Origin: a virus
Taxonomy: Duplodnaviria > Heunggongvirae > Uroviricota > Caudoviricetes
DNA: 4,062 nt
IMG/VR virus record: IMGVR_UViG_2675903654_000014
Span: 1-4,062 of that record
Strand: one strand, 5' to 3'
The notes below the pieces were generated by a model. It did not search any database, was not told the DNA's origin, and saw nothing but the letters and a program-made list of their open reading frames with translations. Positions 1 through 4,062 of this stretch are shown one piece after another (positions within the stretch are counted from its first letter, which is position 1; each line of letters opens with the position of its first letter). The position numbers were made by a program, and so were the translations under genes.

Positions 1-227
1 GGGAAGGCTGGGCCATACTCCTCCGGCAGAAGCAGAAAAAGCTTATTATGCTTCCATCGGAAACGATGATCTGGCAGCCTGAGTTCACAGATAAAACACT
101 CTCCAGGAAACCCGGGGCGGTTCAAAACGCCCATGATTTTACAGGCTTTTGATACGTTGCTGAGTTCTTCAGCCAGATTGAGCAAACCGGCTTTGTGTTT
201 GATAACGGGATTGGTAGTATGAAGCAT
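1..227 (-). CDS. Partial CDS (start in window, runs off the left edge): putative DNA-binding protein with HTH-like N-terminus and a CxxC...Hx5H motif
   Basis: ATG at 227-225 on minus with GAGGT Shine-Dalgarno 8 nt upstream; frame open for 75 codons to position 1 with no stop. Translation begins MLHTTNPVIKHKAGLLNLAEELSNVSKACKIMGV, then ...GECFICELRLPDHRFRWKH. Absent from the ORF track because it is edge-truncated. Confidence 0.4.
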   Translation of the reverse strand, partial: MLHTTNPVIKHKAGLLNLAEELSNVSKACKIMGVLNRPGFPGECFICELRLPDHRFRWKHNKLFLLLPEEYGPAF

Positions 228-287
228 GAGAGTTACCTCGTGTTTTGTATAAGGATTCGACACCCATATCAAAACCGGTAACTCTCA
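227..287 (-). promoter_or_regulatory. Fold-back inverted repeat predicted to sequester the SD and AUG of the left HTH ORF
   Basis: Perfect 11-bp arms TGAGAGTTACC (227-237) and GGTAACTCTCA (277-287) separated by 39 nt. On the minus-strand RNA the downstream arm contains the last two G of the SD and the A of the AUG. Confidence 0.35.
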
Positions 288-350
288 ACCTTTCAAGGCT
301 CAGTGTCAGATCAAGTCGCGACTAATACACTCAATTCCATCATAAACTTC

Positions 351-479
351 TCAGTTGTTAGCTTTTGCCGAACTGGAAAGCGCCTGTTTAAACTCACTGA
401 AGCTGAGAGCTTCTTCGCCTTCGGCAAGGCCTTCGAAGTATTCTTCGTAAGCCTTTTTCATGATTGTGTCGAAATCCAT
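351..479 (-). CDS. Small hypothetical protein, 42 aa, acidic and probably helical
   Basis: ATG at 479-477 on minus with GGTGA SD 5 nt upstream; stop TGA at 353-351; lies 10 nt downstream of the 48-aa ORF stop. Translation MDFDTIMKKAYEEYFEGLAEGEEALSFSEFKQALSSSAKANN. The overlapping plus-strand track ORF 303..533 is F/L-rich with a GTG start and looks like its antisense shadow. Confidence 0.45.
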   Translation of the reverse strand: MDFDTIMKKAYEEYFEGLAEGEEALSFSEFKQALSSSAKANN

Positions 480-489
480 ATCACTCACC

Positions 490-636
490 TTAGTTTCTTT
501 CCAACCAGCGACGTGCGCCAGCTTCGGTTTTAAACGATTTGCTTTTGGTATACGTCATGGCGGTGAATGTGCCGTCCTGATTGGGAAACACGCCACATAC
601 CAGAGATTCGTTGTTGCCAAGATCGATAGTATCCAT
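490..636 (-). CDS. Small hypothetical protein, 48 aa
   Basis: ATG at 636-634 on minus with GAGG SD 5 nt upstream; stop TAA at 492-490. Translation MDTIDLGNNESLVCGVFPNQDGTFTAMTYTKSKSFKTEAGARRWLERN. The track extends this frame to a TTG at 699 that has no SD; the internal ATG is preferred. Position next to the repressor resembles the tiny ydaG/ydaF-type ORFs of Rac-like prophages (size and position only). Confidence 0.45.
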   Translation of the reverse strand: MDTIDLGNNESLVCGVFPNQDGTFTAMTYTKSKSFKTEAGARRWLERN

Positions 637-816
637 GTTGACCTCATTTCCCCTTAACGCCGGGTGGCGGAACGTTTTATCTACTGCGCTTTGTATCAAT
701 CAACAACTGCCGTCATGTTCGTATGCCTCAGGCTGGCTACTTAGCCCTGTTCAGTGGCTGGATAACTCGAGGTATTGTCCAGCCGTTCTCTGGTGGGGCG
801 TTGTTTGGATATGCTT

Positions 817-845
817 ATTAAACACAATGCGTTTTCTTATGTCAA
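817..845 (-). promoter_or_regulatory. Leftward sigma70-type promoter (PL-like): TTGACA, 17-bp spacer, TTTAAT
   Basis: On the minus strand, perfect -35 TTGACA (plus 840-845) and -10 TTTAAT (plus 817-822) with a 17-bp spacer. It lies just downstream of the repressor terminator and is oriented toward the small ORFs. Confidence 0.5.
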
Positions 846-858
846 CACGAAATGTGTT
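844..858. promoter_or_regulatory. Candidate operator (OL-like) 15-bp palindrome AACACGAAATGTGTT overlapping the -35 of the leftward promoter
   Basis: Inverted half-sites AACAC / GTGTT; related to the two palindromes in the repressor-cro intergenic region (1373-1387, 1419-1433). Confidence 0.4.
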
Positions 859-885
859 TTGTGGTGAGTGTCATATGATGATGGT

Positions 886-911
886 ACAAAAAAGCCCGCT
901 GATAGCGGGCT
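886..911 (-). terminator. Rho-independent terminator for the repressor gene
   Basis: 8-bp GC-rich stem AGCCCGCT (893-900) / AGCGGGCT (904-911) with a 3-nt loop, followed on the minus strand by UUUUUGU (plus A-run 888-892). It is 30 nt downstream of the repressor stop and is not a terminator in the plus orientation. Confidence 0.55.
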
Positions 912-941
912 GATTGGCATATTACTGTGATAGCAAGATCA

Positions 942-1361
942 TTACTCCGGTGGGGGATTATCTTTAAGCCTGCCTCTCAAATATTTTTCTACATACTCAT
1001 CGATTTCTTTTAGCCGGACTTCAAATAGCTCAATCATTCGTTGTTGTTCTGAGCCAGGTAGCTGGTTAAACAACTCAAGAAGTTTTCGTTGGGATTCATT
1101 TAACCACAATTCAGAAGATTCCTGTTCTCCAAATAGGAGCTCAGGAGGAGATATGCCAAGTGCCTTTCCCAATACGACAGCGTCATGCACTCCAACATTT
1201 CTGCTGCCCGCCTCATAGTTACCTATACGCGATTGCGTCCATCCGCAGATTTCAGCAAGTTTTCCTTGAGATAAACCAAGCTTCTGCCTGCGCTCTTTAA
1301 GACGCATTGCAATTTTGTCATTGAGCCTACTAGCGGCAATTTTTTCGTTTTCTTTTTCCAT
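942..1361 (-). CDS. Prophage repressor, XRE-family HTH (CI/RacR-like), 139 aa, no S24 peptidase domain
   Basis: Track ORF with ATG at 1361 and AAGGA SD 4 nt upstream. HTH segment LGLSQGKLAEICGWTQSRIGNYEAG; C-terminal part is helical and charged with no Ser/Lys peptidase motif. Divergent from a Cro-like gene, as in lambdoid immunity regions. Confidence 0.85.
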   Translation of the reverse strand: MEKENEKIAASRLNDKIAMRLKERRQKLGLSQGKLAEICGWTQSRIGNYEAGSRNVGVHDAVVLGKALGISPPELLFGEQESSELWLNESQRKLLELFNQLPGSEQQRMIELFEVRLKEIDEYVEKYLRGRLKDNPPPE

Positions 1362-1372
1362 TGCATCCTTGT

Positions 1373-1387
1373 ATCACGAATCGTGAT
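1373..1387. promoter_or_regulatory. Candidate operator: perfect 15-bp palindrome ATCACGAaTCGTGAT in the repressor 5' leader
   Basis: 7-bp perfect arms around one central base; lies 2 nt upstream of the repressor SD on its mRNA. Confidence 0.4.
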
Positions 1388-1408
1388 TTACATAAAACAC
1401 AAAACAGC

Positions 1409-1439
1409 TTGACCATATAACACAAGGTGTGTTTAAAAT
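1409..1439 (+). promoter_or_regulatory. Rightward promoter (PR-like) for the cro-like operon
   Basis: -35 TTGACC (1409-1414), then -10 TTTAAA (1432-1437, 17-bp spacer) or TAAAAT (1434-1439, 19-bp spacer); followed by GGAGG SD (1447-1451) and ATG at 1458. Confidence 0.45.
1419..1433. promoter_or_regulatory. Candidate operator (OR-like) 15-bp palindrome AACACAaggTGTGTT overlapping the PR spacer and -10
   Basis: Perfect 6-bp arms AACACA / TGTGTT with a 3-nt centre; same half-site family as 844-858. Confidence 0.4.
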
Positions 1440-1457
1440 TGTCATCGGAGGTTTTCA

Positions 1458-1700
1458 ATGAACAAAATTTCAACATATCGAAAACAGCTTGGGCTGTCTC
1501 AAAGACAACTTGCTGTTCAGTTAGGGTGGATACAAAGCCGACTGGCAAATTACGAAGCAAATTTTCGTACCCCTGGACTAGAGGAGTGCAGAAAAATTGT
1601 TTCTACCCTTAATCGGCTTGGCGCTCATTGTGGACTTGACGATGTATTCCCCCCAGACGGTAAGCATAGCGAAAACAGCATAGGAGCGGTTGATTCATGA
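1458..1700 (+). CDS. Cro-like XRE-family HTH regulator, 80 aa
   Basis: Track ORF with ATG at 1458 and GGAGG SD 6 nt upstream. HTH LGLSQRQLAVQLGWIQSRLANYEAN is about 60 percent identical to the repressor HTH over 30 residues. First gene of the rightward operon; its stop overlaps the next start (ATGA). Confidence 0.8.
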   Translation: MNKISTYRKQLGLSQRQLAVQLGWIQSRLANYEANFRTPGLEECRKIVSTLNRLGAHCGLDDVFPPDGKHSENSIGAVDS

Positions 1701-1707
1701 AAATCAG
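1690..1707. promoter_or_regulatory. Inverted repeat TTGATT-N6-AATCAg spanning the cro stop / ydaT-like start
   Basis: TTGATT (1690-1695), 6-nt spacer, AATCAG (1702-1707); 11 of 12 positions palindromic. Confidence 0.4.
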
Positions 1708-2119
1708 GCATGAGCACATCGAATCAGTGTTGTTAGCCCTGGCAGCCGAAAAAGGGCAGGCGTGGGTCGCTAACGCAATTACTGAAGAATATCTGCGCCA
1801 GGGGGGCGGCGAATTGCCCCTGGTACCAGGCAAGGACTGGAATAATCAGCAGAACATCTATCACCGTTGGTTAAAAGGTGAAACGAAAGCGCAAAGGGAA
1901 AAAATTCAGAAACTGATCCCTGCGGTTCTGGCAATTCTTCCGCGCGAGCTGCGTCACCGACTCTGCATCTTCGATACCCTGGAACGCCGTGCATTACTGG
2001 CGGCGCAGGAAGCGTTGAGTACGGCAATTGATGCGCATGATGATGCAGTCCAGGCCGTTTACCGGAAAGCACATTTCAGCGGTGGTGGGTCGCCCGGCGA
2101 TTCTGTCGTAGTGCATTGA
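1697..2119 (+). CDS. ydaT: YdaT-like protein (CII-functional-analogue / putative toxin family of Rac-type prophages), 140 aa
   Basis: Track ORF; ATG at 1697 overlaps the cro-like stop (ATGA). Translation MKIRHEHIESVLLALAAEKGQAWVANAITEEYLRQGGGELPLV... matches my recollection of YdaT in sequence and length (140 aa). Position after cro equals that of lambda cII. Confidence 0.75.
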   Translation: MKIRHEHIESVLLALAAEKGQAWVANAITEEYLRQGGGELPLVPGKDWNNQQNIYHRWLKGETKAQREKIQKLIPAVLAILPRELRHRLCIFDTLERRALLAAQEALSTAIDAHDDAVQAVYRKAHFSGGGSPGDSVVVH

Positions 2120-2133
2120 TTGAAATTAATCGT
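2116..2133. promoter_or_regulatory. Inverted repeat TTGATT-N6-AATCgt overlapping the ydaT-like stop codon
   Basis: TTGATT (2116-2121), 6-nt spacer, AATCGT (2128-2133); 10 of 12 positions palindromic; same half-site as 1690-1707. Confidence 0.35.
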
Positions 2134-2164
2134 GCCGGATTGTTTTGTTCGGTATCAGTTAAAT

Positions 2165-2183
2165 GTAACGCTGCGAGCGTTAC
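2165..2183. repeat. 19-bp dyad repeat copy 1, GTAACGCTgcgAGCGTTAC, just upstream of the initiator SD
   Basis: Perfect 8-bp arms; the AAGGTGA SD follows immediately and the ATG is at 2197. Confidence 0.6.
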
Positions 2184-2196
2184 AAGGTGAAAACAA

Positions 2197-2979
2197 ATGG
2201 CTTCAAACTGGATAAAGCTCGAGGTTATTACGCCGGATAAGCCGGAAATATTCAGGCTTGCTGAGATTCTGAATATTGATCCAGATGCCGCATTAGGGAA
2301 GGTTATTCGCTTCTGGGCATGGGCGGATCAACAAATGATAGACGGTAATGCAGATTGTAACGCTCGCGGCGTTACAAAAAGTGCAATAGATCGCATCACT
2401 TTTATGGCTGGTTTTGCTGATGCGTTAATTCAGGTTGGATGGCTGATCGAAAATGACGGTGGGCTTTCTCTACCTAACTTTGAACGTCATAACGGGAAAA
2501 GCTCTAAAAAACGGGCGGTTACAAACGAGCGAGTAACAAAAATACGCGAACTGCAACGAAAAGGTAACGCTGCCAGCGTTACACAAACGGATCAAAAAGC
2601 GTTACCAGAGGAAGAGGAAGATATAAATACTGATCTCCCCCTAAATCCCCCTCGCCAAAAACGAGCGTCTAAAAAATTCGAGCCGGAGGCTATCGAGCTG
2701 CCTGACTGGTTGCCGGAAACACTCTGGCATGAGTGGTTTCAGTTCAGGCAGGCATTGCGAAAACCGATTCGAACGGAGCAGGGCGCTAACGGGGCGATAC
2801 GGGAACTGGAAAAATTCCGTCAGCAGGGTTTTACACCTGAGCAGGTGATTCGACACAGCATCGCCAATGAATACCAGGGCTTGTTCGCACCGAAAGGTGT
2901 TCGGCCTGAGACGTTGCTCCGACAGGTTAACACCGTCTCGTTGCCGGACAGTGCGATCCCGCCAGGCTTCAGGGGGTAA
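2197..2979 (+). CDS. Replication initiation protein, YdaU / DUF1376-like (lambda O functional analogue), 260 aa
   Basis: Track ORF with ATG at 2197 and AAGGTGA SD. Sits immediately upstream of a DnaC-like gene, the usual initiator / helicase-loader pairing. Contains internal dyad repeats. Family assignment is from memory of DUF1376-type prophage proteins and was not searched. Confidence 0.75.
   Translation: MASNWIKLEVITPDKPEIFRLAEILNIDPDAALGKVIRFWAWADQQMIDGNADCNARGVTKSAIDRITFMAGFADALIQVGWLIENDGGLSLPNFERHNGKSSKKRAVTNERVTKIRELQRKGNAASVTQTDQKALPEEEEDINTDLPLNPPRQKRASKKFEPEAIELPDWLPETLWHEWFQFRQALRKPIRTEQGANGAIRELEKFRQQGFTPEQVIRHSIANEYQGLFAPKGVRPETLLRQVNTVSLPDSAIPPGFRG
2357..2375. repeat. 19-bp dyad repeat copy 2, GTAACGCtcgcgGCGTTAC, inside the initiator CDS
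   Basis: Perfect 7-bp arms; encodes the peptide CNARGVT. Confidence 0.6.
2518..2537. repeat. Degenerate, inverted-order relative of the dyad repeat (GTTAC-N10-GTAAC)
   Basis: GTTAC (2518-2522) and GTAAC (2533-2537); encodes AVTNERVT. An isolated half-site AGCGTTAC is at 2598-2605. Confidence 0.35.
2564..2582. repeat. 19-bp dyad repeat copy 3, GTAACGCTGcCAGCGTTAC, inside the initiator CDS
   Basis: Perfect 9-bp arms around one central base; encodes GNAASVT. Confidence 0.6.
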
Positions 2980-2985
2980 TGGACC

Positions 2986-3710
2986 ATGAAAAATATTGCG
3001 ACAGGCGGTGTTCTTGAACGTATCCGTAAGCTGGCTCCGCAGCATGTAACCGCGCCGTACCGGACTGTGGACGAGTGGCGAGAGTGGCAGCTTGCAGAAG
3101 GGCGAAAACGTAGCGAGGAGATCAACCGCCTGAATCGTCAGTTGCGGGTGGAAAAAATTCTGAATCGCTCAGGCATCCAGCCGTTGCATCGTAAATGCTC
3201 GTTTGCAAATTACCAGGTGCAGAACGACGGCCAGCGATACGCGTTNNNNNNNTGATGACCGGGGGTACAAATTTTGCGTTCAGCGGAAAACCTGGTACCG
3301 GGAAGAACCACTTAGCGGCAGCTATCGGAAATCGCCTGCTGAAAGATGGCCAGACAGTGATTGTGGTTACTGTGGCTGATGTTATGAGTGCCCTGCATGC
3401 CAGCTATGACGACGGACAGTCAGGCGAAAAATTTTTGCGGGAACTGTGCGAAGTGGATCTGCTGGTTCTTGATGAGATTGGCATTCAGCGCGAGACGAAA
3501 AACGAGCAGGTGGTACTGCACCAGATTATTGATCGACGGACAGCGTCGATGCGTAGCGTGGGAATGCTGACAAATCTGAACTATGAGGCCATGAAAACAT
3601 TGCTCGGTGAGCGGATTATGGATCGCATGACCATGAACAGCGGACGCTGGGTGAATTTTAACTGGGAGAGCTGGCGTCCGAATGTCGTCCAGCCAGGAAT
3701 TGCGAAGTAA
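2986..3710 (+). CDS. DnaC-like replicative helicase loader (AAA+ ATPase; YdaV-like), interrupted by a 7-N gap
   Basis: N-terminal part [20 protein letters not shown]...[26 protein letters not shown] and C-terminal part ...[20 protein letters not shown]...[10 protein letters not shown]...[22 protein letters not shown] align by eye with E. coli DnaC (Walker A GKPGTGK, Walker B LLVLDE). ATG at 2986 with GGGGG SD; stop TAA at 3708-3710. The two halves sit in different frames across the N-run at 3246-3252. Confidence 0.8.
3246..3252. other. Run of 7 ambiguous bases (assembly gap or masked sequence) inside the DnaC-like gene
   Basis: nnnnnnn in the sequence; flanking coding frames differ, and by alignment to DnaC about 11 residues are missing. 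Confidence 0.9.
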
Positions 3711-3732
3711 TTTTTACCGGGAGAAAAATTTA

Positions 3733-4062
3733 ATGGAGACTGTTTTTGACGCACTGAAAGCAATGGGAAAAGCCACATCCATAGAACTTGCTGCGCGACT
3801 TGATATCAGTCGTGAAGAGGTACTGAACGAGCTGTGGGAACTGAAAAAAGCTGGTTTTGTTGATAAAACCGCGTACACCTGGCGCGTGGCTGAAAACAAC
3901 GTTCAGCAGGAACAGTCAGCGCAGGCAGAACTGCCGGAAGAAACCACCACAGCAACAGTAGCGAAAATCTCAGAGTGCGATTTAACCGCAACGATTGAAC
4001 AACGCGGACCACAAACGGCTGATGAGCTGGCTACATTGTTTGATACCACATCACGCAAAGTG
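3733..4062 (+). CDS. Partial CDS (5' end; runs off the right edge): hypothetical protein with two winged-helix-like segments
   Basis: ATG at 3733 with GGGAG SD 9 nt upstream; frame open for 110 codons to the window end. Translation [56 protein letters not shown]...[29 protein letters not shown]. Absent from the ORF track because it is edge-truncated. Confidence 0.55.

Follow-up and report, generated by a model that had tools for sequence, protein, structure and literature searches.

Palindromic sites conserved as DNA in a prophage replication initiator gene suggest an embedded origin with dispersed sites

We analyzed a stretch of 4,062 nucleotides (nt) from a Caudoviricetes virus (IMG/VR record IMGVR_UViG_2675903654_000014, positions 1 to 4,062; called here the window), which is 99.8% identical to a prophage at the Rac site (ttcA-intR) of Escherichia coli. 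Our subject is a set of three 19-bp dyads that lie just upstream of and within a gene for a 260-residue replication initiator (2197 to 2979, plus strand). These dyads are under strong nucleotide-level selection and are kept as DNA across several bacterial phyla. They covary with the subfamily of the initiator, they occupy defined positions relative to the domains of the protein, and a nearby purine tract is itself constrained to be homopurine. We consider it probable that the dyads serve as cognate sites for the initiator of the same prophage and that they form an embedded, lambda-like origin with dispersed sites.

Three dyads in and upstream of the initiator gene

The whole window was searched with the motif GTAACGCT-N3-AGCGTTAC, allowing up to 3 mismatches. 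Copy 1 (2165 to 2183; GTAACGCTGCGAGCGTTAC) has no mismatches and is noncoding. Copy 2 (2357 to 2375; GTAACGCTCGCGGCGTTAC; gene offset, +160) has a single mismatch, an A-to-G change at 2368 that is fixed in the lineage, and copy 3 (2564 to 2582; GTAACGCTGCCAGCGTTAC; gene offset, +367) again has none. There was no further site at this threshold in the window; the chance expectation is 0.01 per window, and three matches were reached in 0 of 200 shuffles. The start-to-start spacings are 192 and 207 bp, so the three near-identical palindromes 190 to 210 bp apart that a first-pass annotation of this DNA had described are indeed present. Each of them extends to 21 bp (T/G-GTAAC...GTTAC-A; 2164 to 2184 in the case of copy 1). 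An exact right arm, AGCGTTAC, recurs at 2598 to 2605 (gene offset, +401), as the annotation had also listed; it is the only intact part of the remnant of a second tandem site (2587 to 2605) that lies 23 bp past copy 3. The motif is also locally enriched: in a 44-kb stretch of the matching E. coli chromosome, comprising the whole prophage and host flank, the core GTAACG-N7-CGTTAC (up to 1 mismatch) is found only at copies 1 to 3. A further stretch, 2518 to 2537, had been put forward as a degenerate relative, and we rejected it as a dyad: the mismatches exceed 3, the arms are everted (GTTAC...GTAAC), and the stretch is not conserved in homologues, which have CTTACA (peptide RALTN) at this position. 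Its resemblance to the dyads looks like a by-product of a conserved KKRA(V/L)TNxRV peptide.

The ydaT stop codon (2119) and the ATG of the initiator (2197) are separated by a 77-bp gap. Copy 1 falls within it, 14 nt ahead of AAGGTG, the ribosome-binding site near the ATG. Translation bore out the repeated N-A-x-x-V-T peptide noted earlier: copies 2 and 3 share one reading frame and are read as C54-N-A-R-G-V-T60 and G123-N-A-A-S-V-T129. The first of these peptides is modeled, with low confidence, as a surface loop of a winged-helix-like N-terminal domain, and the second is predicted to lie in the disordered linker between the N- and C-terminal domains.

The initiator itself gave a match to PHROG 2509, "replication initiation protein," that spans all of it (residues 1 to 260; expect value [E], 3.8e-87). 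Its C-terminal half, and no other part of it, also matched PHROG 678, "replication initiation O-like," and a 97%-identical protein is named "phage replication initiator YdaU family protein" in RefSeq; that PHROG 2509 and the YdaU family function as initiators is an annotation. The predicted layout consists of a winged-helix-like N-terminal domain (approximately residues 16 to 91), a basic helix (103 to 120), a disordered acidic linker, and a YdaU/O-like C-terminal domain (approximately 160 to 225), with the folded domains separated by a predicted disordered segment spanning residues 96 to 158. The initiator, its N-terminal domain included, was unmatched in Pfam and NCBIfam even at an E value of 10, and our confidence in the modeled winged-helix-like fold of the N-terminal domain is modest. 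The family comprises approximately 6,940 clusters at 50% identity and is without a Pfam model. Pseudomonadota, Planctomycetota, and Verrucomicrobiota all have phages and prophages with members of this family, among which are those of epsilon15, CP2, and phiPSA1.

The dyads are conserved as DNA

We compared homologous loci in samples ascertained in two ways. For one sample, the exact palindrome was the sole criterion, which yielded 121 viral contigs. The others were selected by protein, using peptide patterns outside the motif, and comprised viral contigs and genomes (one per species); the genome sample was centered on a Pseudomonas-type member and not on the window protein. Among the palindrome-bearing contigs, 117 of 121 encode a homologue of the N-terminal domain that overlaps the motif (33 to 98% amino acid identity), and a second dyad is present about 200 bp away at most of these loci. 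Four contigs had no match to the N-terminal domain; one of them (L059) is cut at the contig edge, and three (L104, L058, and L071) are unexplained. L104 is the one clear case of a dyad array detached from the usual initiator: a full dyad and extra GTAACG half-sites (6440 to 6500) lie at the end of a 72-residue open reading frame (ORF; …GNANSNAVSVTKSELE), just upstream of a gene that has neither similarity to the N-terminal domain nor a Pfam match. The dyad of L058 adjoins a terminase gene.

In the protein-selected samples, all 75 unique viral loci carry a dyad at +148 (up to 1 mismatch) and a second at approximately +355, and 34 of 37 genomic loci keep at least one. The position homologous to copy 2 (+148/+160) holds a dyad in most of the 37, and the site homologous to copy 3 is found at +337 to +391 in relatives. 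The genomic loci that keep a dyad belong to Pseudomonas, Stenotrophomonas, Serratia, Pectobacterium, Rahnella, Planctomycetota (Novipirellula, Stieleria, Roseiconus, and Pirellula), and Verrucomicrobiota (Akkermansia and Terrimicrobiaceae), with G+C contents of 44 to 68%. For the third positions of GGT AAC GCT / AGC GTT, the entropy was 0 to 0.11 across 68 ungapped sequences, compared to 0.86 for the spacer codon (CCN) and 1 to 1.9 for other fully conserved four-fold codons. Moreover, the dyad DNA is translated in two frames, as GNAxSVT at 183 sites and as VTxxAL at 37 sites. Frozen synonymous sites, a free spacer, and the use of two reading frames together indicate that selection acts on the DNA and not on the NAxxVT peptide, as the first-pass annotation had argued from the window alone. 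The outcome that it named as counting against this view, homologues keeping the peptide while synonymous changes break up the palindrome, is not what the protein-selected samples showed.

It could be supposed that the repeat is a selected protein motif or an internal duplication and that the palindrome is incidental, since the peptide does recur twice in most family members. We find this scarcely credible. Beyond the pattern of synonymous sites and the second frame, the dyad is also noncoding at copy 1, and in two contigs an extra perfect dyad approximately 4.5 kb from the initiator gene (L042:1368-1386 and L117:1561-1579) lies on the opposite strand of an unrelated 116-residue ORF, where it is read as IVTLAALLE. 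In addition, some family members that are without the first peptide motif retain the N-terminal domain.

In the Pseudomonas-type N-terminal domains (L122 to L201), synonymous sites are also frozen in codons 57 to 59, just after the first dyad (AAA AAG TTA, with Leu always TTA), and likewise at Val66, where GTT lies within a half-site-like GGCGTTA. Judging from these codons, the constrained DNA may extend past the 19-bp dyad.

An upstream copy within 150 bp of the start codon is present in 32 of 196 unique relatives, mostly Enterobacterales, at 192 to 204 bp from the first in-gene copy.

The conserved property is sequence rather than pairing

Across 125 distinct site sequences, we counted 123 one-sided changes, 6 noncomplementary double changes, and 1 compensatory change. 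Arm positions 2 to 6 are nearly invariant, which gives the core GTAACG-N7-CGTTAC, and frequent variants (GTTAG and AACGTTAG) break the stem. It is therefore the sequence and not the capacity to pair that is conserved, which argues for sequence-specific recognition of duplex DNA. The dyads do have features of RNA or single-stranded DNA hairpins, which might serve as a terminator or attenuator, as an RNase III site, or in control of ydaU or ydaV translation: each of them folds into a stem of 8 to 9 bp (z-score, about -3 to -3.6), copy 1 is upstream of the ribosome-binding site, and a consensus scan placed a terminator-like site at copy 3, on the minus strand. Nonetheless, we give a hairpin function very little weight. 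Besides the 123 one-sided changes against a single compensatory one and the common variants that disrupt the stem, the direct half-site arrays of relatives (described below) are unable to pair, no T-run follows the dyad stems on the coding strand, no Rfam family matched the dyads, and the whole dyad sequence switches between subfamilies.

The dyads change with the initiator subfamily

A sister subfamily with the same kind of N-terminal domain, which includes the initiators of epsilon15, BUCT711, RPZH6, and phiPSA1 has a dyad of a different sequence, GTCCGC-N7-GCGGAC, at +65 and at +341 to +377. All 76 unique protein-selected viral loci of this kind have two such dyads per gene and none elsewhere within ±1.5 kb. 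Ralstonia phage Raharianne has yet another, GTAGACG-N6-CGTCTAC, at +153 and +368; for Vibrio phage 1.211.A and Cobetia phage Carin1, a search with exact arms turned up no shared dyad. No neighboring gene is constant at the dyad loci. YdaT homologues were present in 19 of 53, 0 of 52, and 2 of 29 loci, repressor and cro homologues were rarer, and even the C-terminal domain of the initiator is exchangeable, the N- and C-terminal domains being shuffled independently between phages. Because the dyad changes with the initiator subfamily and no neighbor is constant, we link the dyads to the initiator. The simplest reading of these sequence comparisons would be that dimers of the N-terminal domain bind the dyads. 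The origin-specific N-terminal domain and its sites appear to move as one cassette onto a loader-specific C-terminal domain, following the logic known from lambda.

Another DNA-binding protein might own the sites instead, whether the CII-like YdaT, the DicA/RacR-like repressor, Cro, or a host factor. In favor of YdaT, it is encoded directly upstream and is a DNA-binding protein that recognizes inverted repeats (PMC9986795). Its operator, however, is TTGATT-N6-AATCAA (PMC9986795), the look-alikes of which in the window lie away from the dyads, and in the Rac prophage of strain K-12, YdaT sites have been mapped to the racR-ydaS region and the start of ydaT (PMC11879457). Most loci that retain a dyad lack homologues of YdaT, the repressor, and Cro, and the hosts span four phyla, with the dyad following the initiator subfamily and not the host. 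We thus regard ownership by another protein as very unlikely. The YdaT-operator look-alikes, with 1 and 2 mismatches, are at 1690 to 1707 and 2116 to 2133, at the start and stop codons of ydaT; two matches were obtained in 12 of 200 shuffles. Their bracketing of ydaT fits the YdaT footprint reported at the start of that gene in K-12 Rac and is suggestive only.

Half-sites and a homopurine tract at the domain linker

Copy 3 together with the half-site spans the codons for residues 123 to 137, inside the predicted disordered segment between the folded domains. Both are followed by a 15-nt homopurine run on the plus strand (2607 to 2621; AGAGGAAGAGGAAGA; gene offset, +410) that encodes EEEED and, directly after it, by an AT-rich 13-mer (2622 to 2634; TATAAATACTGAT). 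The homopurine tract was absent from the first-pass annotation. Relatives show a related organization. Their linker-coding DNA contains from 0 to several left half-sites (GTAACG) at a 12-nt period and then a full dyad; a second dyad or right half-sites often lie 11 to 23 bp past it, and a homopurine (GAGAA)n or (GAGGAA)n stretch comes immediately after. Some relatives have two tandem full sites 23 bp apart. Among 196 relatives, the longest purine run at the linker position had a median length of 20 nt, compared to 8 nt in control windows (control 99th percentile, 15 nt). CGTTACC followed by a purine run was seen 97 times among 106 unique protein-selected loci, and the Leu codon in frame was always TTA. 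Codon choice makes the same point: the Arg codons in the EEKRRE-coding tract are all AGR (46 of 46 and 144 of 144), in comparison to 13% and 28% elsewhere in the same genes, which indicates that the homopurine tract is itself a DNA element. The tract is common to subfamilies that have different dyads. We propose 2607 to 2634 as a candidate unwinding or loading element; a role for the homopurine tract in unwinding specifically is a guess. DnaA boxes were not enriched here, as none with fewer than 2 mismatches was found in 2100 to 2700 and 5 of 200 shuffles reached the observed count.

In one E. coli and Salmonella group, made up of P0013 and approximately 45 similar proteins (376 to 380 residues), an insertion of about 115 residues is found right after the acidic linker encoded by the purine tract. 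It contains ...REYPVPERGDGCGGRIDIVVTD...GIELD..., a PD-(D/E)xK nuclease-like motif, and a Pfam search of it found nothing. This segment may be a mobile nuclease-like insert at the origin.

Such insertions in some E. coli variants, together with the location of copy 3 at the boundary where N- and C-terminal domains shuffle between phages, could be taken to mean that the dyads are conserved recombination junctions, used in module exchange or as homing or site-specific targets, and not replication sites. Copy 2, however, lies in the middle of the N-terminal domain and not at a junction, and the subfamily-specific two-copy pattern and the half-site arrays are better fitted by a DNA-binding protein. 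Recombination junctions are accordingly a highly improbable explanation.

A more substantial alternative is that the dyads are purely autoregulatory operators that repress or roadblock ydaU-ydaV and that the real origin is elsewhere. Copy 1 is directly upstream of the initiator gene, and all three full sites are palindromic, like the inverted repeats through which Rep dimers of iteron plasmids autorepress. Against this, most relatives are without an upstream copy, while the in-gene copies (+148 and +355) are universal. A sigma-70 consensus scan found no promoter at or overlapping copy 1, and ydaU may be transcribed from the cro-side promoter. Finally, the half-site arrays and homopurine tract at the domain linker mirror the lambda origin (ori-lambda) and have no obvious role in repression. 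We consider a purely operator function unlikely. Given the linker half-sites, the homopurine tract, and the ori-lambda-like layout, we favor an embedded origin whose core is 2564 to 2634. The annotation had suggested a differently organized origin, autoregulatory sites, or DNA looping. The first of these, taken as a lambda-like origin, fits best, with copy 3, the half-site, and the homopurine tract in the layout of ori-lambda and at its place in the gene; autoregulation and looping are possible extra roles of copies 1 and 2.

A model for initiation and the points that weigh against it

In the embedded-origin model, dimers of the winged-helix-like N-terminal domain would recognize GTAACG-N7-CGTTAC. 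The origin core would consist of copy 3, the half-site (2598 to 2605), and the homopurine/AT-rich stretch (2607 to 2634), with copies 1 and 2, at intervals of about 200 bp, in an auxiliary role. The bound dimers would probably bridge the intervening DNA or wrap it into one initiation complex, and copies 1 and 2 may also damp read-through transcription of ydaU-ydaV, a form of autoregulation. The C-terminal domain would then recruit YdaV, a DnaC-like protein encoded directly downstream, and host DnaB to the opened purine tract; YdaV, an IstB/DnaC-like ATPase, is our proposed partner for this domain. The NAxxVT and EEEE/EEKRREE peptides would be largely by-products of the DNA elements, accommodated in tolerant loops and linkers. 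The inferred parts of this scheme are binding, dimer stoichiometry, looping, origin firing, and autoregulation.

Several points weigh against this model. Subfamilies that differ in their dyads nonetheless conserve the putative recognition helix (GFADALIQVGW). The tract is homopurine but not AT-rich in GC-rich relatives. The upstream copy is lineage restricted (32 of 196 loci), and the spacing of about 200 bp is unlike that of any characterized lambdoid origin. Intersite distances (189 to 252 bp, dominated by one lineage) show no clean helical phasing, and no looping claim rests on them. Among close E. coli relatives (96 to 100% identity), 5 of 48 arm positions were variable versus a background of 50 of 438, with too little variation for power; the 3-nt spacers were the most variable positions (6 of 9). 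The comparative samples are phylogenetically nonindependent and dominated by a Pseudomonas lineage. Lastly, the literature that we searched, the coverage of which was incomplete, contained no binding, footprint, or replication data for any member of the family, and the same incomplete search returned no description of these dyads.

On a broader scale, we tentatively suggest, as a possibility somewhat short of an even chance, that this very large and apparently undescribed initiator family uses a distinct origin architecture. Two or three dimer sites about 200 to 300 bp apart would bracket the DNA for the initiator's own DNA-binding domain, a homopurine (GAGAA)n stretch would act as the opening or loading element, and initiation would proceed by bridging or wrapping some 200 to 400 bp and not from a compact iteron array. 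The 12-nt core, GTAACG/CGTTAC, stays near-identical across phyla, and the signature peptides (GNAxSVT, SAxxAD, and EEKRREE) would be readouts of DNA. If the embedded-origin model is correct, it would provide a sequence rule for finding the origin and initiator operator in thousands of temperate phages and prophages that have neither annotated, among them studied phages such as epsilon15, SPN1S, CP2, and phiPSA1 and the prophages of Akkermansia and planctomycetes. It would also be an unusually clear case, by its synonymous-site evidence, of overlapping codes, in which a binding site and a homopurine tract dictate amino acids in tolerant loops and linkers. The lambda principle of an N-terminal domain and its sites acting as a cassette would be at work in an unrelated protein family, between Rac-type prophages, and the dispersed spacing raises a testable mechanistic question, whether the origin is opened via looping or wrapping. 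The module could furthermore be a source of candidate mini-replicons that are orthogonal to one another, in at least three specificity classes.

Genes surrounding the initiator

The window begins inside the 3' end of an IS1203 (IS3-family) transposase gene (1 to 82), and the IS1203 insertion has cut back the early-left region of the prophage; recE-like and helix-turn-helix (HTH) pseudogenes are annotated alongside. A DicA/RacR-like repressor is encoded on the minus strand (942 to 1361), followed by genes for a cro-like HTH protein (1458 to 1700) and YdaT (1697 to 2119), the initiator gene, ydaV (2986 to 3710, plus strand), which encodes the DnaC/IstB-like helicase loader, and YdaW/DUF1627 (3733 onward). 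The ydaV frame is broken by a run of seven N's at 3246 to 3252, where the matching chromosome has 29 bases (4,084 nt in total, compared to 4,062). In that chromosome ydaV is intact (747 nt), so the ORFs listed at 2986 to 3255 and 3195 to 3710 are one gene.

Other palindromes, ATCACGA-A-TCGTGAT and AACACA-AGG-TGTGTT (1373 to 1387 and 1419 to 1433), are present in or near the repressor-cro intergenic region, with a related AACAC/GTGTT pair near 820 to 859. We take them for probable operators, of either the DicA/RacR-like repressor or cro, that have no relation to the GTAACG dyads. The ydfB/DUF1391 region (230 to 388) gave a subthreshold Rfam match to the small RNA family psRNA2 (37 bits, compared to a gathering score of 65; E, 1e-6).

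Comparison with known origins

The closest parallel to the window is the origin of lambda. In both, the initiator gene contains the origin (a proposed one in the window), placed in the DNA for the junction of a DNA-binding N-terminal domain and a loader-binding C-terminal domain; the sites measure approximately 19 bp and have dyad symmetry within them, purine-rich DNA lies past the last site, and the loader gene comes next. Even the gene offsets are similar. The lambda iterons are at +348 to +433 and an 18-nt purine run, which in annotated ori-lambda is about 20 nt after iteron 4, is at approximately +452, compared to +367 for copy 3, +401 for the half-site, and +410 for the purine run in the window. 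The proteins themselves showed no such likeness, as the window initiator gave a BLASTP E value above 1 against lambda O and had no match to Pfam Phage_rep_O. The arrangement of sites differs as well. Lambda has four tandem iterons 20 to 24 bp apart, whereas the linker DNA of the window has one full site and a half-site, with further full sites 207 and 399 bp upstream. An array of at least three tandem iterons about two helical turns apart is thus not what the window contains; its full sites are 192 and 207 bp apart. The tract found here also differs, being homopurine (GAGGAA/GAGAA repeats) and not simply AT-rich.

The Rac prophage of K-12 shares with the window its integration site and gene order (repressor, cro-like gene, ydaT, initiator, ydaV, and ydaW). 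The C-terminal domain of K-12 YdaU is 80% identical to that of the window initiator, and both genes have repeats in the linker-coding DNA. The N-terminal domain of K-12 YdaU, however, is DUF1376, unrelated to that of the window protein (which has no DUF1376 match), and the K-12 repeats are not dyads; A(A/G)CAGATGTTCAA occurs there as five direct repeats, of which four are spaced by 12 to 33 bp. With the same C-terminal domain joined to a different N-terminal domain and different repeats, the window carries an alternative module of N-terminal domain plus sites. Within K-12 ydaU (L248:2761-3063), one A(A/G)CAGATGTTCAA copy is at +141 and four are at +352 to +430 (spacings of 33, 33, and 12 nt). 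We regard these repeats as candidate iterons of oriJ; here again an outlying copy lies about 200 bp upstream of the linker array.

The replisome organizer of Bacillus phage SPP1 provides a further parallel. This initiator, G38P, binds repeated boxes in its own gene (oriL), beside an easily melted region, and SPP1 has a second origin, oriR, far away. Its protein family and box sequence differ from those of the window, and a distant extra dyad was seen here in L042 and L117 only; that dyad could be a second binding site comparable to oriR.

The Rep proteins of iteron plasmids (RepA of pSC101, RepE of F, and pi of R6K) are winged-helix proteins that use one half-site in two ways, as inverted repeats bound by dimers at an upstream operator and as direct arrays at the origin. 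Relatives of the window likewise show both inverted and direct half-site arrangements. No sequence relationship was detected between the initiator and these Rep proteins, and iterons of plasmids lie outside rep, unlike the sites described here, which are within coding sequence and shape the protein. Measured against lambda-type origins, what sets the loci described here apart is the dispersed placement of the dyads, the homopurine tract, and the conservation across phyla.

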